Of a stretch of 32,678 nucleotides of DNA, positions 979 to 31,420 are shown in pieces. Positions within the stretch are counted from its first letter, which is position 1; each line of letters opens with the position of its first letter. Position numbers and translations under genes: made by a program. The DNA comes from Methanobacteriota archaeon (GTDB lineage: Archaea; Thermoplasmatota; Poseidoniia; Poseidoniales; Poseidoniaceae). The notes below the pieces were generated by a model. It was not told where the DNA came from, made no database searches, and was given only the letters and a program-made list of their open reading frames with translations. The stretch spans positions 1 through 32,678 of the forward strand of contig JABIGM010000006.1 of assembly GCA_018650165.1 (NCBI GenBank). Reading direction: 5' to 3'.

Positions 979-983
979 TTGAA
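979..983 (+). promoter_or_regulatory. Putative TATA-position element TTGAA
   Basis: Begins 30 nt before ATG 1009; no SD present. Confidence 0.55.
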
Positions 984-1008
984 TATACGCCTGCGATGCC
1001 TTTTGTTC

Positions 1009-2481
1009 ATGGCGGATGTACTTGCATTACTAAACCAGATGCGTGCCTCCAGTGGAGAGGCTGAAACAGTAGGTCTGCCAGATAGCGTAATTCTAGATTT
1101 TGCGAGTCGAGATTCGACAATTGTTAGAGCGATTGAAGAGGCTTCCTCGAAGCAAAATCAACTTTCATCAGATGAATTGATGATGGATGAAGGGGAATTA
1201 GTCAAGCACCTACAAGCCGATTTTGTAAATTTCTATGCTCCAGCAACTGTAAACCCTTACGTTGCGTTAGCAGGTCGCGGTCCTTGGATTGTAACTGCCC
1301 ATGGTTCAGTATTGCACGATAATGGTGGATATGGTATGCTAGGCATTGGCCATGGGCCAGACGAAATAATTTCAAAGATGAGTGAAAATCATGTAATGGC
1401 AAACGTCATGACTCCATCATTTAGTCAAGCGCGTTTAGCCGCAGCACTTCGAAATGAATTGGGCCATACTAGAGGAAGTTGCCCATTTTCAAAATTTATA
1501 TGTATGAATTCTGGTTCTGAATCGGTAACAGTCGCTTTAAGAATTTCAGATGTTAATTCCAAAAGAATGACGGGGCCAGGTGGTCGTCATGAAGGTAAGC
1601 CAGTCAAACTACTTGCAATAGAGCGTGCGTTCCATGGTAGAACAGATAGGCCTGCACAAATATCTCATTCTTGTATGGGTTCGTATGATAATAACTTGAA
1701 GACATTTTCAGAAAGAGATAATCTGGTTTTAGTTCCATCAAATGATATTGCTGCTTTGCGTGCTGCTTTCAAAGATGCAGATACAAATGGTTACTTCATC
1801 GAATCGATGGCGATTGAACCGGTGCAGGGGGAAGGAAATCCCGGGCAATGTATCGATAGAGAATTCTATGATGTTGCTAGAAGTTTAACCAACGAACATG
1901 GCTCAATGCTAATTATCGATTCAATTCAAGCAGGAATTCGTGGGCAAGGAACCCTTTCAGTTGTTGATTATGCTGGATTCCAAGACGCAGAAGCTCCTGA
2001 TCTTGAAACATGGTCCAAGGCATTGAATGCTGGACAATATCCGCTTTCTGTACTTGGAATGAATGAGAGAGCAGCAGAGTTGTATGTTGTAGGAATTTAT
2101 GGGAATACAATGACTACCAATCCAAGAGCATTAGAAACAGCAGTTGCAGTTCTTGAGAGAATTACACCAGAAATGCGACAGAATATTCGCGATAGAGGTA
2201 AAGAATTTGTTGAGAAACTAAACGCACTATCAGAAGAAATACCAGGGACTATTATCAAAGTCCAAGGTACGGGACTATTGCTCTCCGCAGAGTTAGAGCC
2301 AAGCAAACTAACAGTTGTTGGTTTCGATGAAGTGGAAGTCTGGTGTCGAAAGCACGGACTTGGAGTAATACACGGAGGAGTAAACGCGTTGCGCTACACA
2401 CCACATTTCCATATTACAAGCGAAGAAATCGATTTGGTAATGGATATTACCCGTCAAGCGATTCTACACTTCACACAGTAA
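1009..2481 (+). CDS. lat: Class III PLP aminotransferase, probable L-lysine 6-aminotransferase (Flavobacterium lutescens/Xanthomonadales type)
   Basis: FHGRT, DSIQAG and PLP-lysine SKALNAG motifs. VNFYA...PYVALAGRGPW, GGYGMLG and GHTRGSCPFSKFICMNSGSE blocks match my recollection of that LAT. Start placed at ATG 1009 rather than TTG 979. Confidence 0.75.
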   Translation: MADVLALLNQMRASSGEAETVGLPDSVILDFASRDSTIVRAIEEASSKQNQLSSDELMMDEGELVKHLQADFVNFYAPATVNPYVALAGRGPWIVTAHGSVLHDNGGYGMLGIGHGPDEIISKMSENHVMANVMTPSFSQARLAAALRNELGHTRGSCPFSKFICMNSGSESVTVALRISDVNSKRMTGPGGRHEGKPVKLLAIERAFHGRTDRPAQISHSCMGSYDNNLKTFSERDNLVLVPSNDIAALRAAFKDADTNGYFIESMAIEPVQGEGNPGQCIDREFYDVARSLTNEHGSMLIIDSIQAGIRGQGTLSVVDYAGFQDAEAPDLETWSKALNAGQYPLSVLGMNERAAELYVVGIYGNTMTTNPRALETAVAVLERITPEMRQNIRDRGKEFVEKLNALSEEIPGTIIKVQGTGLLLSAELEPSKLTVVGFDEVEVWCRKHGLGVIHGGVNALRYTPHFHITSEEIDLVMDITRQAILHFTQ

Positions 2482-2482
2482 C

Positions 2483-3973
2483 TTACTGTCCAGTAATCAA
2501 GTGGTGAAGAGTCCTAACGTGGATTCCTGTTGCTCCGTTCTTGACCAACTTGTTAGTCTTAGCACCCCATGCGGTACCTGCAATATCGAGGTGAGCCCAA
2601 GGGATTTGTTCGTCGGTTCCTTCCATGTTTGGAACGAATTGCTTTAGGAATGCAGCAGCGGTATTTGAGCCACCCCAGCGTCCTGCACCGAGATTTCTAA
2701 CATCAGCTATCTTAGAATCGGTCATTTCCTTCTCGAATGCTTTGAACAAAGGCATTGGCCAAGCGATTTCACCACAATGTTCTCCAGCGGTTTTGATATT
2801 GTTTAGAAGTTCATCATTGTTGGACCATAGTCCACTAGCCTCATGACCAAGTGCGACTACACAAGCGCCTGTGAGTGTTGCCAAGTCGATCATGTAAGAC
2901 GGGTTTAGTTCAGTTCCTGCATACCAAAGGCCATCAGACAAGACTAGGCGTCCTTCTGCATCTGTGTTTAGAACTTCAACAGTTTTACCAGAATAGGTGG
3001 TAATGACATCTCCCGGGCGTTGAGCGTTAGATGATGGCATATTTTCGGCCATACATGTTAGACCGATGACACGGTCCTTATGCCCACTAGCGACTAGAGC
3101 CTGCATGACACCGAATGTTGTAGCAGAACCGTGCATATCATACTTCATTTCGTCCATTGAAGGAGATGGTTTGATTGAGATACCACCTGTATCGAATGTA
3201 ATTCCCTTCCCTACAATACAAGGACTTGGGCCAGGCTTGTCTGGGTTGATTTCGAAGATTACGATACATGGCTTTCGGTATGATCCCATTCCTACACCGA
3301 CTAATCCGCCCATTCCTAAAGTACGTGCTTCATCGTAAGCGATGATCCTGACATTGACATTGTCGTGCATTATGCCAAATTCTCTTGCTTGTTCTGCGAA
3401 TGCCATTGGGTACATGTCATTAGGAGGTGCGTTTCCTAAGTCTCTTGCTAGGTAGACCCCGGTTGCAACTGCGGATGAAAGTTCAGCCGACTTGGCCAAA
3501 ACCTCGGTTTTTTCATCTTCGCATGTGACATTAACAGTAATCTCGGTATCATCTGAATCTTCGTCTTTCGACTTGTAATGATCATATGAATAATCTCTGA
3601 GAATCATTCCTTCAACAAATGCTCCCATGTGAGCATCTTCCATTCCGTGGAACTTGACGGTCAATGTTTTGCCATGAATTTTAGCAAGGCTTGCAGTAAC
3701 CTTTGCTCCAGACTCCCTCATTGATTGAAGGGTTGCTTCATCTTCCTTACCTAGCCCGACAAGTAGTGCCTTACCACCTTCTGTACCAGCAAGAGTCATT
3801 GCAGAGCCAGATTTAGCTTTGAAATCTCCATCTTCTAGAATTGTTTCTATCTGAGTTTTGAGTCCTCTATGTAATCCAGACTCACTTCCAGCAACCATAT
3901 TTCTGCTATCTTGCCACAATGGAAGTACTAGAGTTCCGTTGATGTTTTCATTGGTGTTTACGTTTACCTTCAT
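2483..3973 (-). CDS. pepA: Leucyl aminopeptidase, peptidase M17
   Basis: VGKGITFDTGG, MKYDMHGS and NTDAEGRL metal-binding motifs. ATG 3973 is preceded by SD AGGTGA; the ORF-track extension to 4153 overlaps the next gene. Confidence 0.95.
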   Translation of the reverse strand: MKVNVNTNENINGTLVLPLWQDSRNMVAGSESGLHRGLKTQIETILEDGDFKAKSGSAMTLAGTEGGKALLVGLGKEDEATLQSMRESGAKVTASLAKIHGKTLTVKFHGMEDAHMGAFVEGMILRDYSYDHYKSKDEDSDDTEITVNVTCEDEKTEVLAKSAELSSAVATGVYLARDLGNAPPNDMYPMAFAEQAREFGIMHDNVNVRIIAYDEARTLGMGGLVGVGMGSYRKPCIVIFEINPDKPGPSPCIVGKGITFDTGGISIKPSPSMDEMKYDMHGSATTFGVMQALVASGHKDRVIGLTCMAENMPSSNAQRPGDVITTYSGKTVEVLNTDAEGRLVLSDGLWYAGTELNPSYMIDLATLTGACVVALGHEASGLWSNNDELLNNIKTAGEHCGEIAWPMPLFKAFEKEMTDSKIADVRNLGAGRWGGSNTAAAFLKQFVPNMEGTDEQIPWAHLDIAGTAWGAKTNKLVKNGATGIHVRTLHHLITGQ

Positions 3974-4029
3974 TGGCTCACCTATTCGGGGGAATGGTAC
4001 CTTGCTCTTGAAGATGCGCCCAACTAGGC

Positions 4030-5424: not shown

Positions 5425-5429
5425 ATCAA
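5425..5429 (-). promoter_or_regulatory. Putative TATA-position element TTGAT
   Basis: Begins 29 nt before ATG 5400. Confidence 0.55.
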
Positions 5430-6186: not shown

Positions 6187-7482
6187 CTAATTGAGGATAT
6201 ATGAGAATAAAATCGGGGCCACAATTGTTGCATCTGACTCAATCATATGCATAGGCGTACCTGGTGCCAATTTACCCCATGTGATCTTCTCACTAGGTGG
6301 AGCGCCAGAATAGCCTCCATAAGAGGTCGTGGATTCTGAGATTTGGGCAAACCAACCCCATAGTGGTGCTTTTTCTTGCATGTCTTGTCTTAGCATTGGA
6401 ACTACGCAGATTGGGAAATCTCCAGCGATTCCTCCTCCGATTTGTAAGAAGCCGATTGGGTGTTCAGCATTCATGTACCAATCAGCTAAGTGCATCATGT
6501 AGTCGATACCGCCTTTGACTGCACTTTGTTCAACATCACCTTTGATACAATGTGCTGCGAAGATATTGCCAAGGGTTGAATCTTCCCAACCTGGGACATA
6601 GACCGGTATTCCTGCATCTCTAGCCGCTATCAGCCAGGAATCAGTTCTTGGAATATCCGCCTCAAGGTCGTCGAGGATAGCCATCAAATGTTCATGCGGG
6701 AATGCAGGACCACTTTGCCATTGTTTCAGAATTTTATCCTCGATATGGCGGATTGCTTCTTCTTCGGGAATACAAGTATCTGTGACACGATTGAATCCTT
6801 TCGAATGTAAATCTGCTTCATCCTGTTCTGATATATTTCTCCAGTTTGGAATTCTTTCGTAGTGTGAGTTTGCAACTAAATTGAATACGTCTTCCTCAAG
6901 GTTCGCCCCTGTACAAGTTATTGCGTGAATTTTCCCTGCTCTAATCATCGGTGCAAGAGAACAACCGATTTCTGCAGTACTCATAGCTCCAGCAAGTGTA
7001 ACCATTAGGCGGCCACCGTCTCTAAGGAATTCGTCTAATGAACGTGCGCAATCTCGAAGAGCACCTGCGTTGAAATGATTGAAATGCCGATCAACGAAAC
7101 CTCGTACACCACCATTTACAGGTTCAGTAAGGAATCTTTCTACTCGCTTTCTACGATTGATATTCATGTTAGGATAATTATCTTGCAACTCCTTTTCTAT
7201 CATCTCAATGATTCTTGCAGGGTCGGTTCCACCACAAGTAAACGCATCAATAGCAAGCCAACCACTTTCTGAATAGCAATGTGCGCTGACATGACTTTCA
7301 TCAAGCAATACAACCGCTGCAAACCCTAATGGAGATACGCTTCCGTCAAAGTGTTCAACATGTGAATGAACGCGACGGGCCCCTGATGCATCAACTGCAT
7401 TTTCCATTAAAGATAGCATCCATGGCCCATCTATTCCGACTGCACCTGTGCAATCGAGCATGATGTGTGCGCCATGTGCCAT
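6187..7482 (-). CDS. Fusion of a SpeD/AdoMetDC-fold pyruvoyl decarboxylase (aa 1-118) and a deoxyhypusine-synthase-like domain
   Basis: N-terminal GAHIMLD, LLDESHVSAHCY and IDAFTCG; C-terminal FNHFNAG, LAGAMSTAE, TGANLEED, GGGIAGDF and SGAPPSEKITWGK. One uninterrupted frame. Confidence 0.9.
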   Translation of the reverse strand: MAHGAHIMLDCTGAVGIDGPWMLSLMENAVDASGARRVHSHVEHFDGSVSPLGFAAVVLLDESHVSAHCYSESGWLAIDAFTCGGTDPARIIEMIEKELQDNYPNMNINRRKRVERFLTEPVNGGVRGFVDRHFNHFNAGALRDCARSLDEFLRDGGRLMVTLAGAMSTAEIGCSLAPMIRAGKIHAITCTGANLEEDVFNLVANSHYERIPNWRNISEQDEADLHSKGFNRVTDTCIPEEEAIRHIEDKILKQWQSGPAFPHEHLMAILDDLEADIPRTDSWLIAARDAGIPVYVPGWEDSTLGNIFAAHCIKGDVEQSAVKGGIDYMMHLADWYMNAEHPIGFLQIGGGIAGDFPICVVPMLRQDMQEKAPLWGWFAQISESTTSYGGYSGAPPSEKITWGKLAPGTPMHMIESDATIVAPILFSYILN

Positions 7483-7486
7483 CTAA

Positions 7487-8377
7487 TCAGCCCCTTTTTG
7501 CAATCGCAGCAGCAGTAATTTTGGTCGCAATCATTGCTGCGGTAAACTGAGTGAGAGGTGTATCTTCTTGTTTTACAATCTCATTAACATCAGCACTGAT
7601 TACATTACATGAACTAAAGAGAGTTTCAATGGTTTGAACTACATGCCAGAATGAAAGACCTCCCGGGACAGGTGTTCCTGTAGCGGGAACTAATGAACCA
7701 TCTAGCCCATCGATATCAATTGTGAGATGTACACAACCTTCAATTTTTGAAATTGATTCAAGCCAACCATCCCAAGCCTTTGCACCTGTGCAAGGACTCA
7801 TCACATCTTTAGCAAACCAAGTATTGATGCGCTCGTCACTCTCTATGTAATCGGACTCTTGTTTCGAATACGCTCTTATTCCTACTTGATGGACAGATAA
7901 TACGCCTTCGTCTAGGGACCTGGAAATAGCGCATGCGTGGGAATAAGGCTCGCCGTCAAGTTCATCGCGCAAATCTGCATGTGCATCGATTTGAACGAGA
8001 GTTACTTTTTCAGGACAGCCTCTGAGAATACCGGGTAGTATTCCATGTTCCCCTCCAAGAAATATTGGAAAAGCATCACGTGCATATTGTTGGGAAGCGT
8101 ATCTGCCAATTCCATCGAGTTGTTCTTGGAGCGTATCTCCTTCGCCATTCCATGGTTCGATGGTATGAATTATTGCGCCAGCAGGAAGCTCTTTGCCTAG
8201 CAAATCATCGTACAATTCTACTTGACCTGAAGCTTCAATACAAGCGGCAGGTCCATCGGCAGTACCCTGTCCATATGAGGTTGTAAGTTCATATGGGATG
8301 GATGCTATGATGATATCGGGATTACCCTTCACATTGGGTAATCCGAGGAAATTACCCTCGCAAAACACCTCATCCAT
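7487..8377 (-). CDS. speB: Agmatinase (ureohydrolase family)
   Basis: GGEH, DAHADLRD and DIDGLD metal-binding motifs; PGG motif; 4-nt gap to the next gene. Confidence 0.85.
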   Translation of the reverse strand: MDEVFCEGNFLGLPNVKGNPDIIIASIPYELTTSYGQGTADGPAACIEASGQVELYDDLLGKELPAGAIIHTIEPWNGEGDTLQEQLDGIGRYASQQYARDAFPIFLGGEHGILPGILRGCPEKVTLVQIDAHADLRDELDGEPYSHACAISRSLDEGVLSVHQVGIRAYSKQESDYIESDERINTWFAKDVMSPCTGAKAWDGWLESISKIEGCVHLTIDIDGLDGSLVPATGTPVPGGLSFWHVVQTIETLFSSCNVISADVNEIVKQEDTPLTQFTAAMIATKITAAAIAKRG

Positions 8378-8402: not shown

Positions 8403-8407
8403 TTGAA
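8403..8407 (-). promoter_or_regulatory. Putative TATA-position element TTCAA
   Basis: Begins 30 nt before ATG 8377. Confidence 0.55.
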
Positions 8408-8960: not shown

Positions 8961-8965
8961 TTGAA
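8961..8965 (+). promoter_or_regulatory. Putative TATA-position element TTGAA
   Basis: Begins 29 nt before ATG 8990. Confidence 0.55.
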
Positions 8966-8989: not shown

Positions 8990-11938
8990 ATGAAGGCAAG
9001 GGCCGGTCTGCTAGTAGTGCTTTTTTTGGCTTCAACACTACCTATTGTAAATGCAGATGAAGTTTCACCAGTCACCATTAATGTGGACTGGACTGGAGAC
9101 CATGCGTATATTGTCACTGGAGAAGTAAATCTCGCAGAGGTTAGTGTTAATCATTTACACGATGGAATTGAATTAGATGTTGGATTGATTTATGATACGA
9201 CAGGGGACGACCTTCGAATTGTTTTGAATACTTCACTTTCTCACGGAGATACAATTACAGTAAATGCGGGAAATGTATCACGTATTGTCACAGTTGGTCT
9301 TTGGGGCCAACCTTTAGCAGACCACGAAGTAACTCTTGATTCACATTGGGAAATGGACCAGCAGTGGGAAAATGAAAATGGCTCGCAGAAGTATATCCTA
9401 GAGTTTGATGGTCAAGGATGGCAGCAACGAATTGGAAATACTCTGGAATCTTGGGAAATGGGTGATGGAACTTTACTTATTCTTTCCAACACAGCAGATG
9501 GCGGAATTTCAATGCTGCTTGAACTAGATTCTGTTTGGAAAAATGAAACCACTGTAGACGGAATCATGGTAGCACAAGTCTTCGATGCACGTGGTAGCGG
9601 GACAATAGGCGTAGCAAATGATGGCGACGAAGGCAATGTCGACATCGAAGGAACTGTAAGTGATGCTTGGATTAATCGTTCAATGGTTGACGGCATCGTC
9701 GATGAAAGATTTAGATTAGAAGCGAACGGGACTATTTCAGTTCTTTCAGAAGATGAAGATGAATCGATGAATCTCTCTGGAGAACTAGCAGTATTACTCA
9801 TTGAAACATGGGATTCAAATGGAACTCGTAGATTATCGAATACACAATTTGAAGCTACTGCGGACTTAATTCTTGATACCAATGATAGTAGAATGGATAT
9901 TTCACTAGATACATTCCAATCGGTTGACCGATGGGAAGATGGGGTGAGAGTAGGCCATCTCAACAGAATGATTGGTCACGGAACCTTCGGGTTTTCGGGT
10001 GAAGATGAAAATGCGAGCGTGCAAATTAATGGTACGATTTATGATTTTCATCAAGAGCAGGAAGATGGCCTAGTTACGGTTGATGACTTACATGTTGACG
10101 GAATCATCACCGGTGATGCCCAAGGAACGTTTGGAGTTGTCAGAACTATCGAAAATAATGATCACAGTGAAGCTAATTCCACCGGCGTAATGTATGATGT
10201 AATCATTGTTCACCAGGAAGATTGGTTCAATTTAACTGGAATTACCGCATTGCCAAATTCCGATTTAGGAGTCGGAGCCCACCACAACGAATCATGGTCA
10301 TATGATGCGATTCAATCCGATTGGGACAACAGAACTATCAGAACAGTTTGGAGTCAAACTGGGCCAGACCCAAGCAGCGGAGATGAAGTCCATGCTAATT
10401 CGCCAATTCAAATAAACCCTGAAGCCCCATCTGTTGAAGAAGGAATTGGCGATGCTACAGTTAGCCGGGAATCGGGATTCTCTCCAATCGATGCAGCAAC
10501 AGGTGATACCTTTACTCTCGACCACCAAGGAGGAATGCAACTTACAGTTACAGCAGGTGAATTACAAACCATACCAATGGATGGACATATGGTTGATACG
10601 GTTGCTTGGACAGGTGTATATTCGATTGATGTAACCGGTACAGCAAATGGTAACCTGATTGTTGATGGACCATTGTCCGGTCTAAATGTTGCAATAAATA
10701 GAGCATTCCAAGTTGAATTTGGTGAAGATGAACAACTGGTTAATCTAACGGAGAGCCAATCTGTAAATCGCGTACTATCGCCTTCGATTATTTCAGTTCA
10801 TGATAATCATGAACCTAGCATTGAAGATATCGTATTAGCAAATGGAGTTGTCACTGGTGAGAATGGAGCACCTAGTTATCTTGAAGTCACAGTATCTGAT
10901 ATTGATTTCAATATCGCCAGCGTAGTTGCCGATACAGAGTCAATCGGTGGTACAGATTGGATAAATCTCAACGATAAGGGCCTGGATGGAGATCGAATCA
11001 TCGGCGATGACATATGGACTGTGAATCTATCCGTGCCAGGATTAGAATTTGGTGAACTTCCAATTAATGTCAGAGTTACAGATGTATTTGATGCAAGTGA
11101 TAATGACTCAGCTAACATTACAGTTCTGAATCAACCACCACGACTAACTTCAATTCAAATGGTGCCAACTATCATTTCTCGTGGTGAAATGATGATTGTA
11201 AATGCTGAAGTTATTGATGGACATGGTGTATCATCAGTTTCTGTCGATATGCGAGAATATGGCAGTGGGCTGTTAGAATTAGAGCGAGTAGGCGACATAT
11301 GGGCTGGACAGATAATAATTCCAACCGGAATGAGCCCCGGGGAGCACATCTTGAAGATTCGAATGGTCGATGAATTTGAATCAGCAATTACCGTTGAAAG
11401 AACCCTCGTCTCAGGCCAGCATCACATCCCATCCGAATATGATGAAGATATTTCGATTAATGTGATGAATGAACCCCCTCAAATTGATGTAGGCGAATTG
11501 AGAACAATCGAGATGGGCGGAGAGGATGTTGAATATAATTTGACAATTTCGGTAATGGATTATGATGGACTGAATTGGGTAAAGGTCAAACTGGGAATTC
11601 TTGCCCCCCCGGGCCAATCCAACACCTGGTTTGTCATGACCTCAAATGGCGATGGGACGTACACGAAACAGGTCTTAATCAAGAAGCATATTGCATTAGG
11701 AACACATGAACTTTTAGTGAAGGCTATGGATTCATATGGTTCCCAATCTTCTATGGAATCAGTTCCAATCATGTTGGAAGAGGACGAAAATCCAGCCTCA
11801 ACATCCGGCCCTTCAAGCAGCACAATGACTTATGTTGCTCTTGGAGGACTCGGTATTCTAGTGATTATTGGTGTTGTAATTTACATCATGCGGGGTTCTG
11901 ACGAAGAAGGCGGCCTTGGTGGCTTTGGCGACGTTTGA
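8990..11938 (+). CDS. Large acidic beta-rich cell-surface glycoprotein with choice-of-anchor-X-like motif and C-terminal TM anchor
   Basis: Signal peptide MKARAGLLVVLFLASTLPIVNA; LNDKGLDGDRIIGDDIWT motif; about 19 N-x-S/T sequons counted; TM YVALGGLGILVIIGVVIYIM. Confidence 0.85.
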   Translation: MKARAGLLVVLFLASTLPIVNADEVSPVTINVDWTGDHAYIVTGEVNLAEVSVNHLHDGIELDVGLIYDTTGDDLRIVLNTSLSHGDTITVNAGNVSRIVTVGLWGQPLADHEVTLDSHWEMDQQWENENGSQKYILEFDGQGWQQRIGNTLESWEMGDGTLLILSNTADGGISMLLELDSVWKNETTVDGIMVAQVFDARGSGTIGVANDGDEGNVDIEGTVSDAWINRSMVDGIVDERFRLEANGTISVLSEDEDESMNLSGELAVLLIETWDSNGTRRLSNTQFEATADLILDTNDSRMDISLDTFQSVDRWEDGVRVGHLNRMIGHGTFGFSGEDENASVQINGTIYDFHQEQEDGLVTVDDLHVDGIITGDAQGTFGVVRTIENNDHSEANSTGVMYDVIIVHQEDWFNLTGITALPNSDLGVGAHHNESWSYDAIQSDWDNRTIRTVWSQTGPDPSSGDEVHANSPIQINPEAPSVEEGIGDATVSRESGFSPIDAATGDTFTLDHQGGMQLTVTAGELQTIPMDGHMVDTVAWTGVYSIDVTGTANGNLIVDGPLSGLNVAINRAFQVEFGEDEQLVNLTESQSVNRVLSPSIISVHDNHEPSIEDIVLANGVVTGENGAPSYLEVTVSDIDFNIASVVADTESIGGTDWINLNDKGLDGDRIIGDDIWTVNLSVPGLEFGELPINVRVTDVFDASDNDSANITVLNQPPRLTSIQMVPTIISRGEMMIVNAEVIDGHGVSSVSVDMREYGSGLLELERVGDIWAGQIIIPTGMSPGEHILKIRMVDEFESAITVERTLVSGQHHIPSEYDEDISINVMNEPPQIDVGELRTIEMGGEDVEYNLTISVMDYDGLNWVKVKLGILAPPGQSNTWFVMTSNGDGTYTKQVLIKKHIALGTHELLVKAMDSYGSQSSMESVPIMLEEDENPASTSGPSSSTMTYVALGGLGILVIIGVVIYIMRGSDEEGGLGGFGDV

Positions 11939-11999: not shown

Positions 12000-12071
12000 G
12001 CGAGAGTAGTGTAGTGGTTATCACCGAGCGTTGCCAACGCTTGAACCCGGGTTCGAGTCCCGGCTCTCGCA
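12000..12071 (+). tRNA. tRNA-Gly(GCC), no intron, CCA not encoded
   Basis: Acceptor stem GCGAGAG/CTCTCGC, anticodon arm GAGCG-TTGCCAA-CGCTT, T-loop GTTCGAGTC. Confidence 0.97.
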
Positions 12072-12287
12072 CTCTAACTATATTCAGTGGCCCATTTACG
12101 AATCAATTTTCTACCTACTGCTGAATTTGACTAATCTTTTTATGAATATATTTTAGCATAATTCTAAGAGTATTGAATCAATATTTGCCCTTGATTTCTT
12201 TACACAATAGTTGCGGGAGGATACATATGGCAGTAACATCTCCGCGATAGTTTAAATTGCATCCGATTTACTAAGGGTATTGGGACA

Positions 12288-14009: not shown

Positions 14010-14014
14010 ATGAA
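14010..14014 (-). promoter_or_regulatory. Putative TATA-position element TTCAT
   Basis: Begins 30 nt before ATG 13984, within a 53-nt divergent gap. Confidence 0.55.
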
Positions 14015-14037: not shown

Positions 14038-14376
14038 ATGTGGAAACCAATTCTCGTTTATACTGTGATATATGTTGCATTATTTTCCGCACATATCGTG
14101 GCTGCTGCAAATGATTGGGAAATTATGTTTCGAATAATTGCAACAATAATCACATTACAAACAATGCTTGCTGGTTTATGTATACATTTTTTGAAAGGAG
14201 ATGTGAAGCATGCAAGACTTCCAGTAGTCGCTTTGAGTGCAGGTTTAGGTTGGGCTTATGCAGGCATGAATGAGAATTGGGAAATTGCAATATGGGTCAC
14301 CGGTGCAATTTTGTTGCAATTACTAACTGAAAAAGGGTTGAAGTATAGGGCGCTCGCCGAGTCAATCAATGGCTGA
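14038..14376 (+). CDS. Small 4-TM hypothetical membrane protein
   Basis: 112 aa, four hydrophobic segments; overlaps mrp by 8 nt. Confidence 0.75.
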   Translation: MWKPILVYTVIYVALFSAHIVAAANDWEIMFRIIATIITLQTMLAGLCIHFLKGDVKHARLPVVALSAGLGWAYAGMNENWEIAIWVTGAILLQLLTEKGLKYRALAESING

Positions 14377-18564: not shown

Positions 18565-18569
18565 TTGAA
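18565..18569. promoter_or_regulatory. Putative bidirectional TATA-position element TTGAA/TTCAA shared by bud32 and nadA
   Basis: Minus strand: 29 nt before ATG 18540. Plus strand: 29 nt before the GAGG SD of nadA. Confidence 0.5.
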
Positions 18570-19735: not shown

Positions 19736-20077
19736 CTCTACAGATTTCCATCCAGCATATGCCAGTAATGGACAAAAGATCATTGTAATCAAAACATAGC
19801 CAATAGCTTTAGTTTGCTCTTCATTCCACAATTCGATAGTTTCTACCGAGAAGGCAGACATTGTTGTGAATGCTCCGAGTATTCCAGTCCCTAGAAGTAG
19901 TGTCATTTCTTTAGAAATCATCTCATTTGCCAGAGCAGCCATACATACCCCTAGTAGTAAGGACCCCAAGGCATTGACAAGAAGAGTTCCCTGAGGAGTC
20001 CCAATCCATTCGGATACTGCAAAGCGTAGCGTTGCCCCGATTGCACCGCCTATTGCCACGGCAAGATATGAATTCAC
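19721..20077 (-). CDS. crcB: Fluc/CrcB fluoride channel
   Basis: GGAIGATLR, TLLVNALGS and GILGAFTTMSAF motifs; 4 TM; GTG start. Confidence 0.92.
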   Translation of the reverse strand: MNSYLAVAIGGAIGATLRFAVSEWIGTPQGTLLVNALGSLLLGVCMAALANEMISKEMTLLLGTGILGAFTTMSAFSVETIELWNEEQTKAIGYVLITMIFCPLLAYAGWKSVELLFD

Positions 20078-20102: not shown

Positions 20103-20107
20103 ATCAA
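20103..20107 (-). promoter_or_regulatory. Putative TATA-position element TTGAT
   Basis: Begins 30 nt before GTG 20077. Confidence 0.55.
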
Positions 20108-22545: not shown

Positions 22546-22570
22546 GTACCACCCGAGGAAGTCATGACAA

Positions 22571-22575
22571 ATCAA
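22571..22575 (-). promoter_or_regulatory. Putative TATA-position element TTGAT
   Basis: Begins 30 nt before ATG 22545. Confidence 0.55.
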
Positions 22576-22590
22576 CCTTGCAAGCACACA

Positions 22591-22595
22591 TTGAA
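22591..22595 (+). promoter_or_regulatory. Putative TATA-position element TTGAA
   Basis: Begins 29 nt before ATG 22620. Confidence 0.55.
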
Positions 22596-22619
22596 AGTTG
22601 AGAGGCCCACCGTTGTATT

Positions 22620-23399
22620 ATGCCCGCCCGTGAAGAGTCATTGGTAGTAGCAAAAGATTTAGGCAAGAGGTATGGTGATTTCATTGCTTTACATCCTTTG
22701 AATGTAGATGTTAGTTCAGGAGAGTTTTTCGGAGTTTTTGGGCCAAATGGCGCTGGCAAATCAACGTTCATTAAATTACTAACCGGGCAACTCCGACCAA
22801 GTATCGGCGGAGTAGAGGTATTGGGAATAAATGCTGCTAAAGACCCACAAAAACTCAAAGCCAATATCGGTATTGTTCCAGAATCAGAATCTCCTCCATC
22901 CTACCTTACTCCAAGTGAGTTTTTGCAATTCGTAGGTAAACTTCGTGGGATAGAAGACTTAGACAATAAAGTAGAATATTGGATGGATTGGTTTGGCCTT
23001 AATGAGAAAAGAGACACTATGTGTAAAGATCTCTCAAAGGGTCAACGACAAAAGGTAATGTTAGCTTCAGCCTTCATTCATGAACCGCGACTATTATTTC
23101 TTGATGAACCATTTGCAAACCTTGACCCAATCTATCAGAGGAAATGTCGGCAATGGTTGCTGGACTTAGTTGCGAGTGGAGGCACTATTTTCCTGTGCTC
23201 CCACGTTCTTGAAATGGCAGAAAGAATGTGCAACAGAATGGCTATTATCAATAATGGTAAGGTGTTAGCAGCAGGAACCGTAAAAGAACTTAAAAATTCA
23301 GAAAACGAAACCCTCGAAGATGTATTTATCCGATTGGTAGGGCATTCGATTGAAGAGGCCGAAAGATTGGAAGATGAAGAGGCTAGTGAGGAGGAATAA
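22620..23399 (+). CDS. ABC transporter ATP-binding protein (exporter type)
   Basis: GPNGAGKST, LSKGQRQK, FLDEP and CSH motifs. Confidence 0.95.
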   Translation: MPAREESLVVAKDLGKRYGDFIALHPLNVDVSSGEFFGVFGPNGAGKSTFIKLLTGQLRPSIGGVEVLGINAAKDPQKLKANIGIVPESESPPSYLTPSEFLQFVGKLRGIEDLDNKVEYWMDWFGLNEKRDTMCKDLSKGQRQKVMLASAFIHEPRLLFLDEPFANLDPIYQRKCRQWLLDLVASGGTIFLCSHVLEMAERMCNRMAIINNGKVLAAGTVKELKNSENETLEDVFIRLVGHSIEEAERLEDEEASEEE

Positions 23400-23437: not shown

Positions 23438-25099
23438 GTGGCGGACTCTCCCACTCCAGAATCTCTCGGCTCTGAAAGTGGCGGTAAGCACCTTAACACG
23501 CCCCTTGTAGGTTGGGCCGCATTCTCTGCAACATACAAAGTGATGTTCATTGAAGAGTTTAGAGAAAATTTAGATTTTGCAAAGAAAAGAAGAATCATGT
23601 TATTCCCTCTGCTTGTGGCTTTAGTCACAATGGTTGCAACCATCGGATTACAATTTCTTGTAGGCGAAGGTGCAGCACAAGGAAGTGATTCACTATCTGA
23701 TTCAAGTTCATTTTCCTGGCAAGAAATGCGATTTGCTTTGCACCTACCTTTACTAATGTTCAGTTTGGGAATGGGATCATTTGCATTTCTTGGACGCGAG
23801 AAAGTTTTGGCTAGAACTGGGACAAAAAATTACCTTTTAGCATCACCAGCCCTACAGCCTTTGACAAATTCTACAGCACATTTTGCATATTTCATGAAAG
23901 ATTTATCCTATTACGTGATGCTAATCCTTACGCCTGTGATATCGGGAATGGCTATCGGTATAGCGTTGGAGAGTTTTACTAATGTAAACACTCCGTTGGA
24001 GTTTAGCAGTCTTCCTCGCACTTGGATTGCGATGGTTGTAACTCTTGCACAAGGACTTGCGTTCTCATTCGTAGCCTCTTCTCTTTGGTTATTGGGGGGA
24101 TGGATTGGGAGATTTACACCAATAGCAGTAATTGCTTTGGGTACAGCAATCGGGCTAGGTATTCTTCCACGCCAGTACTTTTTGTGGGGTCTTTCAACAC
24201 AGCAACCCGATGGCCTAATTGTTGCAATACCTGCTCTCGGGGCTTCGATATTTCTTGCTTGGGTCGCATCAAGATTAGTCCGTGATGATTTCGAAGTTAA
24301 GGTAGTTTCAAAGAAAGAAATATTCCTACCCGCGTGGAATCGTCTTGGTTTCCTCGGTAATGGGACGCTACGCCTCTTAGTGGCAAAAGAAGCCGTGGAT
24401 CTGATTCGCTCAGGTTCACTCAAGAAAATGATTGTTTCGTATTCAGTGCCGCTAATTGTTCTTCTGTTGATGGCATGGCTTGTTGATTTTGCTGAGGCGC
24501 CAATACCCATCAATTTACTTTCATATGCGCCATTTCTCGGATTTTTTGGTTTCAATTTTTATTCATGGTTAACGGCTCTAGACTCTCCCGAACATATGAA
24601 CGGATTACCACTGGGGGTCCCTCAATTAATTCGTGCAAAAGTCACAGTGTACTTCCTTGCAACAACTTGGATTTCAGTAATTTTCCTTTGTTTGATGGCC
24701 TGGAAATTGGATGAATGGGCAGCGCTACCAGTCGGTTTAGTGGTGATGATTGCAAACAGCATCTACATCGTTTGCTTGACCGCATTTTTGATGGGTTTAG
24801 CGCCCAACAAGGCAATTTTTGATGCCAAGGTCATGTCTTGGTTTTGGCTTGGAACAGTCATTCCCTTGCTTTCATTATTCCTTCTTTCATTCACGCAAGG
24901 TGATGTTTCATTTTATGAGAATTGGGCCCACCAAGTTGGAGATAAGGGCTTAGATGCCGAAGCGGTTAAATTTGACAATGACAGAATGGCAGCAGGATTC
25001 AAAGGAATTCTGTGGGTAAGTGCAGGCTTAGTGGGGGCCGCTCTACTATTGATGAAACTGCTTGACCGTAAATGGGGAAGGGCAGAGTTCAACAATTGA
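23438..25099 (+). CDS. Polytopic membrane protein, probable ABC exporter permease
   Basis: About 12-14 hydrophobic segments; directly downstream of the ABC ATPase; start uncertain. Confidence 0.8.
   Translation: MADSPTPESLGSESGGKHLNTPLVGWAAFSATYKVMFIEEFRENLDFAKKRRIMLFPLLVALVTMVATIGLQFLVGEGAAQGSDSLSDSSSFSWQEMRFALHLPLLMFSLGMGSFAFLGREKVLARTGTKNYLLASPALQPLTNSTAHFAYFMKDLSYYVMLILTPVISGMAIGIALESFTNVNTPLEFSSLPRTWIAMVVTLAQGLAFSFVASSLWLLGGWIGRFTPIAVIALGTAIGLGILPRQYFLWGLSTQQPDGLIVAIPALGASIFLAWVASRLVRDDFEVKVVSKKEIFLPAWNRLGFLGNGTLRLLVAKEAVDLIRSGSLKKMIVSYSVPLIVLLLMAWLVDFAEAPIPINLLSYAPFLGFFGFNFYSWLTALDSPEHMNGLPLGVPQLIRAKVTVYFLATTWISVIFLCLMAWKLDEWAALPVGLVVMIANSIYIVCLTAFLMGLAPNKAIFDAKVMSWFWLGTVIPLLSLFLLSFTQGDVSFYENWAHQVGDKGLDAEAVKFDNDRMAAGFKGILWVSAGLVGAALLLMKLLDRKWGRAEFNN
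25088..25092 (+). promoter_or_regulatory. Putative TATA-position element TTCAA inside the permease 3' end
   Basis: Begins 30 nt before ATG 25118. Confidence 0.45.
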
Positions 25100-25744: not shown

Positions 25745-27268
25745 ATGGCAAGAAAAGGTGGTGGTGGCCAAAAGAAGAAAGGTGCCCAACAACGAGCAAT
25801 GTACGATGAACTTGACAAGTATCCGGTAATGCCACCGCATGCTTTCGCTCGAATTGTTCGTGATAAAAGGACACTGAACATCATTTACCAAATCATTGAG
25901 CCGCCATTGAATAAGAAAGAACAAGAATGGCGAGATGAGTTATTGGATATTTTCATCCGCTCATTAACAGTAAATGTCGATGAAATTGATGCGGATCCGA
26001 TATCATATCTCCGCACCGCGATGGATAAAGTAATCAAAGCGTACGGAATGAAGGTAAATAAGAAATCAAAATCCAAGTTATTTTACTATCTCCGAAGGGA
26101 TTTAGTTGGATATGGAAAGATGGATGTTCTGATGAACGATGCTAACGTGGAAGATGTATCTCTTGACGGAACTGGAGTTCCAATTTTCGCTTATCACAGA
26201 AAATTCGAATCTGTAGAGACGACCTGTGTCTGGGAAACTGACCATGAATTGGAATCTTATGTTATCAAATTGGCACAGCGTTGTGGTAAGCACATATCCG
26301 TTGCAGACCCGTTACTGGATGCTACGTTAATGGATGGTTCGAGAATTGTTATGAAATTGGGGCGTGAAGTTTCGACCCGTGGTTCAGCATTCTGTATTCG
26401 AAGATTCAAGGACGACCCGTTCTCACCTTGTGACATCATTGCATTCAGAACGCTTTCTTCATTGATGGGGGCATACCTTTGGGTTGCATTCCAGAATGAA
26501 GTTCCAATGCTATTCGTAGGAGGTACTGCATCTGGAAAGACTACAACTCTCAATGCAATGTGTATCTTTATTCCATGGCAGATGAAGATTGTCAGTATTG
26601 AATCCACCCGTGAAGTAAACATTCCACAGCCTAACTGGGTCCCTGGTTTAACCCGCCAAGGATTCGGTGGAGAATCCAATGAAGGAGAAATTGGAGAATT
26701 CGAACTGCTAAAGGCTGCCCTGCGTGAGCGACCAGAATACATCATCGTGGGTGAAATTCGTGGTGCTGAAGCATATGTTCTGTTCCAGGCAATGGCTACG
26801 GGACACTGCGCATATTCTACAGTGCACGCAGATTCGGTTCCTTCGCTAGTACACCGTCTTGAGAACAAACCGATTGATATTCCTCGTGTTCTGTTACCTG
26901 CACTTGAAGCATGTGTTATTCAAATCCAGACACGTATCAACGGACGACGTGTTAGAAGAAGTAAGCAAATTGTAGAAATTGTTGGAATTGATCCAAACTC
27001 GATGGAGATAATTACCAATGAAGTATTCCGATGGAATGTTGCCAATGATGATTTTATATTCTCAGGAAAATCATATGTCTTAGAGAAGATTATGGTCAAG
27101 ATCAATTACAGTCAAGATGAGATGAGAAGAGAACTTCGTACTAGGAAACGTATTCTCGAATGGATGGTACTAAATGACATACGTAAGGCAGACCAAGTCA
27201 GTCAAATAATCACCGAATATTATGTCCGGCCACACGAAATCTTAGCACGTGTAGACGGACTTCGATGA
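25745..27268 (+). CDS. Type IV pilus / Tad assembly ATPase (VirB11/TadA/ArlI superfamily)
   Basis: GGTASGKTT, IIVGEIRG and GHCAYSTVHA motifs; N-terminal YQIIEPPL domain. Confidence 0.93.
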   Translation: MARKGGGGQKKKGAQQRAMYDELDKYPVMPPHAFARIVRDKRTLNIIYQIIEPPLNKKEQEWRDELLDIFIRSLTVNVDEIDADPISYLRTAMDKVIKAYGMKVNKKSKSKLFYYLRRDLVGYGKMDVLMNDANVEDVSLDGTGVPIFAYHRKFESVETTCVWETDHELESYVIKLAQRCGKHISVADPLLDATLMDGSRIVMKLGREVSTRGSAFCIRRFKDDPFSPCDIIAFRTLSSLMGAYLWVAFQNEVPMLFVGGTASGKTTTLNAMCIFIPWQMKIVSIESTREVNIPQPNWVPGLTRQGFGGESNEGEIGEFELLKAALRERPEYIIVGEIRGAEAYVLFQAMATGHCAYSTVHADSVPSLVHRLENKPIDIPRVLLPALEACVIQIQTRINGRRVRRSKQIVEIVGIDPNSMEIITNEVFRWNVANDDFIFSGKSYVLEKIMVKINYSQDEMRRELRTRKRILEWMVLNDIRKADQVSQIITEYYVRPHEILARVDGLR

Positions 27269-27299
27269 TTAATTAATTTGGATTTAGGAGGGGTGATGA

Positions 27300-28319
27300 A
27301 TGGAATTAACTGCTTGGCAGAAAATTTGTCACCGCATTCTTGGTAAAGCATTCAAGAAAAAAGCCCGTTCCGACCAAGTGCTTTCTGATAACTTAGTAAA
27401 AGGAAACATTGGGGTAATGCCAGAAGTTTATCTCGCCCAAGTGTTCGTTACAACCGTTGCAGTCACTGTAATTTGTGGAGTTTTGCTAACAGCCATCTTT
27501 TTGCCAGAAATCGGCTTAATTGATTGGTATGAGTCACGGCCAGATACTTCTACAGCATTAGCTTGCTACGAGTGGGAATATTGGAATGCAGACCTTGTTG
27601 ATGAGACATTAGAAAGTCGCGGTTGCCCATATTTCAAATATATGGAATTCCCTGTATTTGGAGCCATTGGACTTCCTGTTTTACTCGGATTTATAGTTCC
27701 ATTTGGGACATACAAATATCTCAAAGGTGCAGCCGGAAGAGCAGCAAAACTTCGTGGTGTAACGCTAGAGAAGTTTTTGCCATATGCGGCATCTTATACT
27801 GCTGCAATGGCTGCAGCAAATGCCACACCACACAAGATTTTCCGTTCTTTAGCATTGAATGAAGATATCTATGGCGAGATAGCTTATGATTCAGCAATGA
27901 TTTATCGAGATGTAACTTTACTCGGTTTTGATTTGCTGACTGCGATGAAAATGGCTGTTGACCGAGCAGCATCCCCCTGGATGACTGAGTTCTTCCAAGG
28001 AATGGTTGGAACATTAACTGCTGGAGGCTCACTCAAACTGTACTTTTTGAATCGTGCTGAACACTACATGCGTGAAAATCGTACAAGACTTCATGACTTC
28101 CTAGAATCACTTGCAATGCTAGCGGAATCATATATTGTGGTTGCAGTTGCTATGCCACTGTTCCTGATTGTAATGCTCGTCATTATGTTCTGGGTTAGCG
28201 GTGCAGGTGCCCAAATGGAAGAGAGCACTTTGTATCTTGTTGTTCTAGTGGTTCTACCAATGATTCATGGACTATTTGCGTTCATTGTATGGTCCTCAAG
28301 TGAAGAACAAAAAATGTGA
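27300..28319 (+). CDS. TadC/ArlJ-like (T2SSF) membrane platform protein 1
   Basis: FLPYAASY...YGEIA T2SSF-type region and TM helices; SD GGAGG. Confidence 0.85.
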   Translation: MELTAWQKICHRILGKAFKKKARSDQVLSDNLVKGNIGVMPEVYLAQVFVTTVAVTVICGVLLTAIFLPEIGLIDWYESRPDTSTALACYEWEYWNADLVDETLESRGCPYFKYMEFPVFGAIGLPVLLGFIVPFGTYKYLKGAAGRAAKLRGVTLEKFLPYAASYTAAMAAANATPHKIFRSLALNEDIYGEIAYDSAMIYRDVTLLGFDLLTAMKMAVDRAASPWMTEFFQGMVGTLTAGGSLKLYFLNRAEHYMRENRTRLHDFLESLAMLAESYIVVAVAMPLFLIVMLVIMFWVSGAGAQMEESTLYLVVLVVLPMIHGLFAFIVWSSSEEQKM

Positions 28320-28334
28320 TTAGGAGGTGAAATA

Positions 28335-29846
28335 ATGGCGCGTAAAAAAGAGAAAATAACAGTAAAACTCGATTTACCAAAAGACGATTCGACTCTCACT
28401 AAATTATATGCGATTCTTGCAGTCAGTATTTTCTTCGGATTAGCATGTTTCACCTTTTGGATTACAAATTCGCATTTCACAACTGCAGCGAATGGACAAC
28501 CACTCTTCGTCAACACGTTTTGCAAGTACGATTCAACTTATATTCCCACATTTGCTGATAACGAATCATGTTCAATATTGAAGGATGAACCTGATGTATT
28601 GATTATGGAACCTGAAAAAAATTGGGTGGAATTCCTAGCCCTCGGTCAGATGTTTGATGTTCCTGGAATGGATGAGAACGTTTCTGATGTTAGGCCTGCC
28701 CAACCACTGGTCGGTACCTGTTCAGTAACAACTGCTGTTCCTTCTGATTATAATTTTATTATCAATGACCCAGAAGGTAAGGAGTTGCAAAGATATAGCG
28801 GCAATACCCATGCTAAAGGGGACAAATGTGAACTTCGCATTGAAAACATGGAGCGGGGAAACTTGTACCAGGTAGTGATTTTTTCTGAAGAGGAAGTACA
28901 AGATGCATCTTACACCCTTGAAATGGATTACTATGATGGAATTCCAGAAAATATGAACAACAAATCACAATGGATTGGTCCGGAAGTTGAGTTAGGTGGA
29001 TTTTCTCTGCGTCCAACTATTTTCCTGAACTTCTTCGGCCTTGGATTCTTCATCACATTTTGGCCAGCCTCCTTTTATTGGGATAAAGTCACGGAGAAGA
29101 CTAACCGTATGGAAGCGAAATTCCCCGATTTCCTTAGAGATCTTGCAGAGTATTGGAAGGGAGGTCTGTCCATGACAGTGGCAGTTCAAACGCTGGCGAC
29201 GAGTGAATACGGTGCTCTGAACCACGAAGTCAAAAAAATGAGTGACCAATTATCATGGGGTGTTGCATTTGGTGACGTTATCGAAATGTTCGCAGTAAGA
29301 GTCGGAACACCTCTCGTTATGCGTGCGATTTCACTAATTTCTGAAGCGAATAGAGCCGGTGGAAAGATTTCTGATATTCTTGTTACTGCTGCTAACGATA
29401 GTCGTGAAATTAAGTTCCTTGAAGGGGAACGTAAACGTACAATTTCCTCATATATCTCAGTTATTTGGACTTCATACGGTGTTTTCCTAGGTGTTATTGT
29501 AGTTCTTGCTAAGGTTTTCATTCCAGCGATTGCAGGTTCCAATTCCGAACCGAGTGACGATGATGCTGCAGGTGGAGGACAACAGTTGGGTAACATGGTT
29601 ATCCGTAATATCGAACCACTGTTTTTCTTGACAATTTTCTATTATGGTGTTACTATGCAAGCATTGGGTAATGGCTTAATGGCTGGTTTGATGGCTACTG
29701 GCAGATTTACCACAGGAATGAAAATCTCTGGAATGATGATTCTATTAGCAATGGTCTGTTTTAATTTCATTGTATTTACTCCTGATCTGATTGGTATCAC
29801 TACTTTGCCTGCACTAAAACCAGCAGCAGGTACATTCTCACCATGA
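28335..29846 (+). CDS. TadC/ArlJ-like (T2SSF) platform protein 2 with a large N-terminal extracytoplasmic insertion
   Basis: FPDFLRDLAE...YGALNHEV...GGKISDIL motifs; SD GGAGGTGA. Confidence 0.87.
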   Translation: MARKKEKITVKLDLPKDDSTLTKLYAILAVSIFFGLACFTFWITNSHFTTAANGQPLFVNTFCKYDSTYIPTFADNESCSILKDEPDVLIMEPEKNWVEFLALGQMFDVPGMDENVSDVRPAQPLVGTCSVTTAVPSDYNFIINDPEGKELQRYSGNTHAKGDKCELRIENMERGNLYQVVIFSEEEVQDASYTLEMDYYDGIPENMNNKSQWIGPEVELGGFSLRPTIFLNFFGLGFFITFWPASFYWDKVTEKTNRMEAKFPDFLRDLAEYWKGGLSMTVAVQTLATSEYGALNHEVKKMSDQLSWGVAFGDVIEMFAVRVGTPLVMRAISLISEANRAGGKISDILVTAANDSREIKFLEGERKRTISSYISVIWTSYGVFLGVIVVLAKVFIPAIAGSNSEPSDDDAAGGGQQLGNMVIRNIEPLFFLTIFYYGVTMQALGNGLMAGLMATGRFTTGMKISGMMILLAMVCFNFIVFTPDLIGITTLPALKPAAGTFSP

Positions 29847-29855
29847 GGTGCTAGT

Positions 29856-30293: not shown

Positions 30294-30727
30294 TGAGAAA
30301 TAGTAGCAAAGACGAACGCGGGCAGATGCTATTAGCGACAGGAGTTGTATTGATGATGTCACTATTATCAATGGCAATATTTGGTGTGAAAATGGCAGGG
30401 ATTTCAATGCCATATGATACTGCAGGAGATGATTCAATACAAGCATCTGGAGATATTGCTGAAACTTTACCATCACTAACTGAGGCTAGAGCACAGGTGT
30501 GGTATGATGCTGGCCTTTCAGAGTTTGAAAGCGTTGACAAGTCAATTAATTCCCTACACGATGATGTTTTGCACCATGGTGAACTCAGAGGAGTCGAATT
30601 AAAATTGCTTAATATTACAGTAGTTGAATTGGATGGTGTAGTTTCAGTCAGTGCCGAATTAGGCGCAGCAGACAGAAACTCTATGCTGACTCGAATAATC
30701 TCGTTTGAAATAGATCTCGATGACTAA
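30293..30727 (+). CDS. Pilin-like protein with class III signal peptide
   Basis: MRNSSKDERG|QMLLATGVVLMMSLL; TGATG stop/start coupling at 30291-30295. Confidence 0.75.
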   Translation: MRNSSKDERGQMLLATGVVLMMSLLSMAIFGVKMAGISMPYDTAGDDSIQASGDIAETLPSLTEARAQVWYDAGLSEFESVDKSINSLHDDVLHHGELRGVELKLLNITVVELDGVVSVSAELGAADRNSMLTRIISFEIDLDD

Positions 30728-31390
30728 TCAGCGAGTTTTACGCCATTCATTCCAAGCCAAGTCGAACCAGTGGTTGACACGTTCCATCGTATCTTTTGTA
30801 CGAGTCGGATCTAAGGTATTCCAGTCAGCAAGTCTTGCTTTTTCTTTCAAAGAATCTTGAATTGAACGGATTCTTGGTAGTGCTGAGATATAACGGTCTG
30901 CATTTCTGAATGAATGGCTTTCCCGTTGTTTCAGAAAGCTGGTGTGCTGTGCTTCATCTTCTACATGCATGACAATCCCGATTGCAATGCCGCCTGCATC
31001 TTGCCAAGAGCGTAAGATTCGTACACTCGGCTCTATGTGGACTCCCTCTAAAATTAAATCAATACCTTCTCTTCTCGCTCTTTCAATTGTGGCAAACACA
31101 CCCGCTTCAACGGATTTACATGTGTCTTGCCAATCTAATACAGCATCTCCGGATTCACCACGTGAAAATGATGAGCGGTGTAAAGGTGAATTTTCAGTTG
31201 TATCAACAACACGCATAATTTCGCGAATCGCATCTGTAGATAATAGCCGTGCAAATGAATGTTCATTAGCGATTTTCAAGGCAGTAGTCGACTTACCAAC
31301 TCCGGTAGCACCTGCAATTAATACGAGAATCGGAGGCCGTCCCGTGACTTTCGTCGTCGTCGTACCAGCGATACCTATCCTCTTCGCCAT
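30728..31390 (-). CDS. 2-phosphoglycerate-kinase-family P-loop kinase without an ATP cone
   Basis: GATGVGKST, STDAIRE and LEGVH motifs. Confidence 0.75.
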   Translation of the reverse strand: MAKRIGIAGTTTTKVTGRPPILVLIAGATGVGKSTTALKIANEHSFARLLSTDAIREIMRVVDTTENSPLHRSSFSRGESGDAVLDWQDTCKSVEAGVFATIERARREGIDLILEGVHIEPSVRILRSWQDAGGIAIGIVMHVEDEAQHTSFLKQRESHSFRNADRYISALPRIRSIQDSLKEKARLADWNTLDPTRTKDTMERVNHWFDLAWNEWRKTR

Positions 31391-31415
31391 CAGTCGTTGC
31401 TATGCCTGCTGGCTA

Positions 31416-31420
31416 ATCAA
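31416..31420 (-). promoter_or_regulatory. Putative TATA-position element TTGAT
   Basis: Begins 30 nt before ATG 31390. Confidence 0.55.

Follow-up and report, generated by a model that had tools for sequence, protein, structure and literature searches.

The window analyzed here is the whole 32,678-nt stretch of contig JABIGM010000006.1 (C10 in our numbering), one of the 66 contigs of a 1.75-Mb genome with 44% GC (GCA_018650165.1) from the archaeal order Poseidoniales (Marine Group II, MGII). The element in question is a pentamer, TT[G/C]A[A/T], that stands about 30 nt upstream of many of its start codons. We write it TTSAW, and write TTWAW for its A/T-only counterpart TT[A/T]A[A/T]; offsets are counted from the first T of the box to the start codon.

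Genes and boxes in the window

The initial annotation listed 16 starts that lack a Shine-Dalgarno (SD) sequence, 11 of them with an exact TTSAW 29-30 nt upstream. All 11 sites are where it placed them, with the start codon (ATG in ten cases, GTG at 20077 in the other) 29-30 nt downstream of the first T. On the plus strand, TTGAA at 979..983 precedes ATG 1009 of a class-III aminotransferase by 30 nt, TTGAA at 8961..8965 precedes ATG 8990 by 29 nt, and TTCAA at 25088..25092 lies 30 nt before ATG 25118 of a small P-loop kinase-like protein. On the minus strand, the boxes are TTGAT at 5425..5429 (29 nt before ATG 5400, M14 carboxypeptidase), TTCAA at 8403..8407 (30 nt before ATG 8377, arginase/agmatinase family), TTCAT at 14010..14014 (30 nt before ATG 13984, low-molecular-weight phosphatase), TTGAT at 20103..20107 (30 nt before GTG 20077, CrcB fluoride channel) and TTGAT at 31416..31420 (30 nt before ATG 31390, AAA_33/zeta-toxin-like P-loop kinase). 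Two further boxes form a back-to-back promoter pair: TTGAT at 22571..22575 on the minus strand, 30 nt before ATG 22545 of an enoyl-CoA hydratase, and TTGAA at 22591..22595 on the plus strand, 29 nt before ATG 22620 of an ABC-transporter ATPase. The last of the 11 is palindromic, at 18565..18569: read on the minus strand it is TTCAA, 29 nt before ATG 18540 of a RIO-type kinase, and on the plus strand TTGAA, 40 nt before ATG 18605 of nadA, which is 29 nt before the nadA SD. This one box may serve both divergent genes. The other five starts carry the variants that had been described (GTGAA at -29, TTATA at -29, ATGAA at -28, CTCAA at -30 and TTGAG at -27), and an additional site absent from that list, TTGAA at 14338..14342 on the plus strand, lies inside the upstream gene, 31 nt before ATG 14369 of a Mrp/NUBPL-type ParA ATPase.

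TTSAW occurs 694 times in the window on both strands, or 1.06% per position and strand. As two positions were allowed, the chance per start is about 2%, twice the initial estimate of about 1%, and still far below 11/16. The start used is the first ATG of the open frame at 8 of the 11 exact sites, so the choice of start explains little. At the other three it is not; one of these is ATG 13984 of the phosphatase, which is not the first candidate of its frame and from which the Pfam domain LMWPc spans residues 4-118. With the chosen window starts, Pfam domain coverage begins within residues 1-20.

Some genes of the window depart from this layout. The M17 aminopeptidase gene pepA (ATG 3973, minus strand) has the SD AGGTGA; a TTCAA at 4008..4012, 29 nt ahead of that SD and 39 nt ahead of the ATG, is a candidate short-leader promoter. 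A tRNA-Gly gene (12000-12072) has a canonical TTTAT at -33 and no G/C box.

Three neighboring loci deserve mention in their own right. Directly downstream of the arginase/agmatinase-family gene, a 431-aa protein encoded at 6190-8377 on the minus strand joins an S-adenosylmethionine decarboxylase domain (PF02675) to deoxyhypusine synthase (PF01916), and the region looks like a compact polyamine/hypusine module. The perfect TTGAA box at 8961 leads a 982-residue protein (8990-11935, plus strand) for which no Pfam match was found at E<=1e-5. At 25745-29843 on the plus strand, a T2SSE-type ATPase and two T2SSF-like membrane proteins form an operon linked by strong SDs of the form GGAGGTGA, predicted to be an archaeal type IV pilus or archaellum-like assembly set.

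Position, shape and use of the box across the genome

For the genome as a whole, genes were called with a simple codon-usage caller (1342 genes, first ATG of each), and 1300 starts entered the positional test. The caller is crude, and the first ATG frequently differs from the true start. TTSAW nevertheless begins at -31 in 42, at -30 in 64, at -29 in 76 and at -28 in 29 of these starts, compared with about 13 per position elsewhere, and between -32 and -27 of first ATGs it was observed 243 times against 77 expected (P=3e-51). When 5-mers at -32..-28 of first ATGs were ranked against a background at -80..-51, the top four were TTGAA, TTGAT, TTCAA and TTCAT. An unsupervised expectation-maximization (EM) search of -50..-10 of the 816 starts without SD-like words returned T (0.65), T (0.81), C (0.46) or G (0.51), A (0.88) and A (0.55) or T (0.40), with a sharp peak of sites at -31..-28. 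A and T together make up 0.03 of position 3, which departs from the A/T-only composition of the archaeal core promoter. Within the TTNAW frame, enrichment is 3.7-fold for C and 4.2-fold for G at the third position, and about 2-fold, on small numbers, for A and T.

Could the choice of starts, or codon bias in the upstream genes, have produced the peak artificially? Some window starts were indeed chosen by eye, and three of the 11 are not the first ATG of their frame. The peak appears, however, with first-ATG starts only, in de novo k-mer and EM searches, at tRNA genes and in three other genomes (see below), and ATGs lying more than 300 nt inside genes of the same genome show no TTSAW peak. We consider such an artefact extremely improbable.

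The sequence context of the box is also that of a core promoter. In 350 aligned MGII sites, a purine-rich element resembling the B recognition element (BRE), C/G-G-A-A-R, lies directly upstream, at -7..-3 of the box; in relatives, AAA precedes the TTWAW box at -5..-3 instead. No other AT-rich element that the TATA-binding protein (TBP) could use is left elsewhere in these promoters.

Box use tracks transcription units. Among 444 genes with a divergent upstream neighbor, 22% have an exact box and 26% an SD-like word, whereas operon-internal genes (gap below 20 nt) have them in 8% and 61% of cases; control positions 200 nt inside genes give an exact box in 5%. Put the other way, SD-like words are absent from 74% of divergent-neighbor genes versus 39% of operon-internal ones. 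Overall, an SD-like word, with consensus GGAGGTGA, precedes about 37% of first ATGs. Given how often the first ATG misses the true start, the box fraction is a minimum. The same split between box and SD is known from Haloferax and other archaea in which leaderless mRNAs abound. The box keeps a fixed 29-30 nt from the ATG, and the spacing to ATGs (-31..-28) and to tRNA 5' ends matches that of the relatives' TTWAW boxes; from this spacing, transcription would begin at the start codon and the mRNAs would be leaderless.

Where an SD is present, the picture is less uniform. The initial annotation had placed the motif 29 nt before the SD of pepA and nadA, which is correct for both genes and does not extend to a general rule: 258 SD-led genes give no clear peak anchored on GGAGGTGA, and genome-wide there is a weak secondary TTSAW peak at -41/-40 from the ATG. 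Divergent pairs have an ATG-to-ATG gap that peaks at 70-79 nt (27 of 222 pairs), a distance that suits two boxes placed back to back and about 16 nt apart, the layout of the enoyl-CoA hydratase/ABC-ATPase pair (22545-22620). At gaps of 68-80 nt, at least one exact box is present in 16 of 28 pairs and both are present in 4 of 28. A single palindromic box common to two divergent leaderless genes is not the usual layout, since only 2 of the 222 pairs fit it.

Stable RNA genes use the box as well as protein genes. ARAGORN found 32 tRNA genes, 31 of them with enough upstream sequence. In 13 of the 31, against about 2.3 expected, TTSAW is present between -35 and -29 relative to the mature 5' end, most often at -32. 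The box therefore does not depend on start-codon choice and serves stable RNAs too. Eight other tRNA genes of the 31 have a canonical TTWAW at -35..-31 where about 0.5 are expected, an enrichment of about 16-fold, compared with about 2-fold at protein genes. The old A/T box thus appears to be still functional in this organism, and relatively commoner at tRNA than at protein genes. Upstream of the 16S rRNA gene (G000:C44), the only TTSAW within 400 nt is TTGATATA at -328, which joins the G/C box to the canonical 3' half and is a candidate rRNA promoter; a TTTAT lies at -134.

Conservation and lineage distribution of the G:C pair

Three gene-centered footprints across orthologues replaced an earlier set of orthologue pairs from sampled regions, which held 13 sites and was suggestive at most. 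Upstream of the aminotransferase (ATG 1009), TT[G/C]A[A/T] is kept about 30 nt before the ATG in 23 of 23 MGIIa and MGIIb orthologues while the flanks have diverged, and its third position is G in 10, C in 13 and A or T in none. In 15 MGIIa orthologues of the ABC-ATPase (ATG 22620), S-A-W at -27..-25 is kept, with G and C alternating between close relatives, and the first two T's vary (ATGAA, ATCAT, TACAA, CTCAA). The arginase-family gene (ATG 8377) has TTCAA, and its MGIIa orthologues have CTCAA, ATGAT or ATCAT in the same place. Toggling between G and C, never to A or T, amid scrambled flanks argues for positive constraint on a G:C pair. The core is perhaps best described as N-T-S-A-W, a near-palindrome centered on that pair, whose consensus TTSAA is its own reverse complement.

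For the comparison of lineages, 130-400 kb was sampled from each of nine other genomes and run through the same pipeline; the comparators are partial, and the kin genomes are not independent of one another. We give observed over expected counts at -32..-27 of first ATGs, for TTSAW and then TTWAW. Within Poseidoniales these are 243/77 and 49/26 in the genome of the window (MGIIa, 44% GC), 60/14 and 8/3 in G034 (MGIIa, other genus, 51% GC), 43/16.5 and 9/9 in G070 (MGIIb, 40% GC), and 28/5.8 and 1/1.5 in G005 (family f2, genus g5, 52% GC). In other orders of the same class they are 3/2.9 and 25/4.1 in G026 (64% GC), 3/5.1 and 23/9.6 in G124 (36% GC), and 5/3.1 and 18/3.3 in G135 (62% GC). Elsewhere in the Thermoplasmatota they are 11/7.7 and 55/16 in G050 (39% GC), 6/8.1 and 61/26 in G080 (36% GC), and 4/3.6 and 9/3.9 in G056 (56% GC).

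The positional enrichment suggested from the window therefore holds genome-wide and across Poseidoniales, with a -31..-28 peak in four of four genomes, from four genera at 40-52% GC. It is absent from all six other Thermoplasmatota (36-64% GC, three of the same class), which show a TTWAW peak instead, at the same start coordinate of -31..-28. TTSAW being present at 40-52% GC and absent at 36-64% GC, the difference is not a GC effect. TTTAW and TTAAW, about 2-fold enriched in the genome of the window, are not enriched in G070 or G005. On this sampling, the switch from an A/T to a G/C box maps to the order Poseidoniales. The consensus is thus not general in Euryarchaeota: the six other Thermoplasmatota have TTWAW, and published consensuses are A/T-only.

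These data bear on the idea that TBP specificity is unchanged and that TTSAW is a weak TATA box tolerated through drift, mutation bias or selection favoring weak promoters, while strong promoters keep TTWAW. The relative abundance of TTWAW at tRNA genes would fit, as would the canonical contact residues of TBP described below. Yet A or T is nearly absent from position 3 of the motif (3%), about 90% of the excess sites across the four genomes carry S, and orthologous boxes exchange G and C and never take A/T (0 of 23), which points to constraint on the G:C pair rather than decay. The G/C box is moreover found at 40-52% GC, yet a sister lineage with 64% GC keeps A/T boxes, and the weak promoters of other archaea are degenerate A/T boxes, not G/C ones (PMC2699501). 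Taken together, we find this explanation improbable, and slightly more so than the one involving another protein that is weighed below.

The initial annotation had raised the possibility of an altered TBP or transcription factor B (TFB). The genome has two TFB genes and a single TBP (209 aa, on contig C47); a second, weak PF00352 match falls below threshold. Poseidoniales TBPs are at least 78% identical to this one in 105 of 105 genomes searched, versus about 47% for the TBPs of Marine Group III and all other Thermoplasmatota. Its closest relatives in public data are labelled as Poseidoniaceae, Thermoplasmatota or Euryarchaeota metagenome-assembled genomes, and the TBP of a third family (f43, genome G252) is of the MGII type. 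We compared 41 MGII TBPs (our own plus 40) with 86 others. The base-contacting residues are all canonical (N11, V13, F40, F57, V63, T65, N103, V105, F161, I165, V174, L176, F178, V184 and T186), which rules out substitutions at these positions as the cause of the box change. The MGII-specific changes R17, R61, G67 and Y108 are peripheral; at the R61 position, 85% of the other TBPs have Lys. One residue is also missing before S2, and after strand S1', in the second repeat, there is an insertion (YALHYPEDY...GEPLAxxPRKLNLNNLTFHLP, at about residues 111-137) that is conserved but varies in length. AlphaFold2 models the protein with a mean predicted local distance difference test score (pLDDT) of 93, and of about 90 in the insertion. 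The proposal of an altered factor is thus borne out only in part: the TBP is diverged, with peripheral changes and an insertion that may bear on the box, and the residues that touch the bases are unaltered. In one MGIIb genome (G016:C35; L096/L099), the TBP open frame reaches 588 aa: besides the usual insertion, about 380 further residues separate the two repeats.

The box change and the TBP change have the same lineage distribution, which amounts to one evolutionary event and hence a correlation of one. We hypothesize that the TBP changes, including the insertion, could have caused the change of box.

A probable G/C-containing TATA-box equivalent compared with known promoters

Within the minor groove, readout allows G/C and A/T to be exchanged within each pair (PMC10005294). 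In the box, G and C are interchangeable, as are A and T, and S does not stand in for W; a minor-groove reader such as TBP would be expected to show this degeneracy, and we infer that TBP reads the box.

Alternatively, some other abundant DNA-binding protein, for example a global regulator or an initiation factor peculiar to the lineage, might recognize the pentamer, with TBP displaced or acting non-specifically elsewhere. TTSAA is palindromic, as dimeric regulators like, the base-contact residues of TBP look unchanged, and in this crude analysis the box marks no more than about 20-35% of clear transcription-unit starts. Yet 243 fixed-position sites in a 1.75-Mb genome are too many for a regulon, and they include tRNA and unrelated housekeeping genes. 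The sites also occupy the position of the relatives' TTWAW box, with the BRE-like element in the same register; TBP would have no AT-rich element remaining elsewhere; and interchangeable G and C would be unusual for major-groove readers. We therefore regard this alternative as unlikely.

We consider it probable that, in the basal promoter of Poseidoniales, TT(G/C)A(A/T) takes the place of the TATA box. The initial reading of the motif as a TATA variant with G/C at position 3 agrees with its TATA position, the BRE-like element upstream, its use at mostly SD-less start codons and at tRNA genes, its restriction to the order and the A/T boxes of other archaea. Under this model, TFB would recognize the purine-rich BRE beside the box (C/G-G-A-A-R, at -7..-3), and TBP would occupy the box itself, about 27 nt ahead of the point where transcription starts. 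RNA polymerase would then start on or beside the start codon's A, so that the first gene of most transcription units would have a leaderless mRNA, and operon-internal genes would use the SD GGAGGTGA. The switch from an A/T-only box to one needing G/C at its third position would have occurred on the stem of the order, accompanied by a strongly diverged TBP with a folded insertion in its second repeat.

Several observations weigh against this interpretation. With 8 of 31 tRNA genes carrying a canonical TTWAW, the old specificity is not lost, and the one candidate ahead of the 16S rRNA gene, TTGATATA at -328, is ambiguous. Judged from first-ATG starts, no more than about a quarter to a third of clear transcription-unit starts have an exact or near-exact box. 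The base contacts of TBP are canonical, and nothing obvious explains how it would accept the 2-amino group of guanine. Finally, both the reader of the box and the transcription start point are deduced, across the whole order, from sequence.

As to mechanism, we suggest tentatively, at somewhat less than even odds, that in Poseidoniales TBP, together with TFB, has gained positive recognition of a G:C pair within the TATA box. The means could be the order-specific folded insertion after S1', the peripheral residues R17, R61, G67 and Y108, or both; alternatively, a half-step shift in register could place the G:C pair on the pseudo-dyad, under conserved Asn/Thr residues. If so, it would be the first natural TBP known to us that favors the guanine 2-amino group in the minor groove over excluding it.

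Restriction of TBP to A/T-rich DNA is a textbook property common to archaea and eukaryotes, and Poseidoniales are among the most abundant archaea of the surface ocean. If our reading is right, a whole abundant order writes its core promoter with an obligatory G:C pair, and a machinery known as A/T-only seems to have changed its preference. We found no description in the searchable literature of a TATA, promoter or leaderless feature like this one in Poseidoniales or Marine Group II. For annotation, the box with a start codon 29-30 nt downstream is highly predictive, and the rule should help to locate promoters, to identify true start codons and to delimit transcription units across thousands of uncultured MGII genomes, where promoter models trained on cultured archaea will miss this lineage's promoters. 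For mechanism, the order offers a natural experiment on a change in minor-groove recognition by TBP, with the unique insertion as candidate structural cause, an idea amenable to work with recombinant proteins that needs no culture of the organism.

Altered TBP specificity has a laboratory counterpart: the yeast mutant TBPm3 (I194F, V203T, L205V) of Strubin and Struhl, from 1992, reportedly accepts TGTAAA. The concept of an altered-specificity TBP is cited in PMC10005294. The two cases share a TBP working on a TATA box with a G:C pair in its upstream half, if TBP has the role proposed here. They differ in that TBPm3 is a laboratory mutant with three base-contacting changes, whereas MGII TBP is wild-type at those positions (I165, V174, L176), the G:C pair of its box lies one position further inward, and the change arose naturally and spans the order.

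Among archaea, Haloferax volcanii has a TATA element 'TTWT', a BRE 'CGAAA' and 72% leaderless transcripts (PMC4983044). Haloarchaeal promoters resemble those described here in their short, weak-looking box and CGAAA-like BRE, and in having the start codon at the transcription start of most first genes (here judged from spacing), with SDs mostly at internal genes. The haloarchaeal box, in contrast, is A/T-only even at about 65% GC, and haloarchaea have many TBP and TFB paralogues, compared with the one TBP and two TFB genes of this genome.

More generally, box A is TWTATATA in Methanocaldococcus jannaschii (PMC2699501), and similar in Thermococcus (PMC4247193). Like these canonical BRE/TATA promoters, the Poseidoniales element starts about 30 nt and is centered about 27 nt before the inferred transcription start, has the T-T-x-A-W frame, follows a purine-rich BRE directly and serves both protein and tRNA genes. 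It differs in that position 3 is G/C in about 97% of motif instances, not A/T, and in that the core comprises 5 bp rather than 6-8, positions 6-8 being nearly uninformative (position 6 is mostly R). The sequence evidence thus indicates an element that behaves as an archaeal BRE/TATA promoter would in where it lies, what surrounds it and which genes it serves, and that departs from such a promoter in not being A/T-only.

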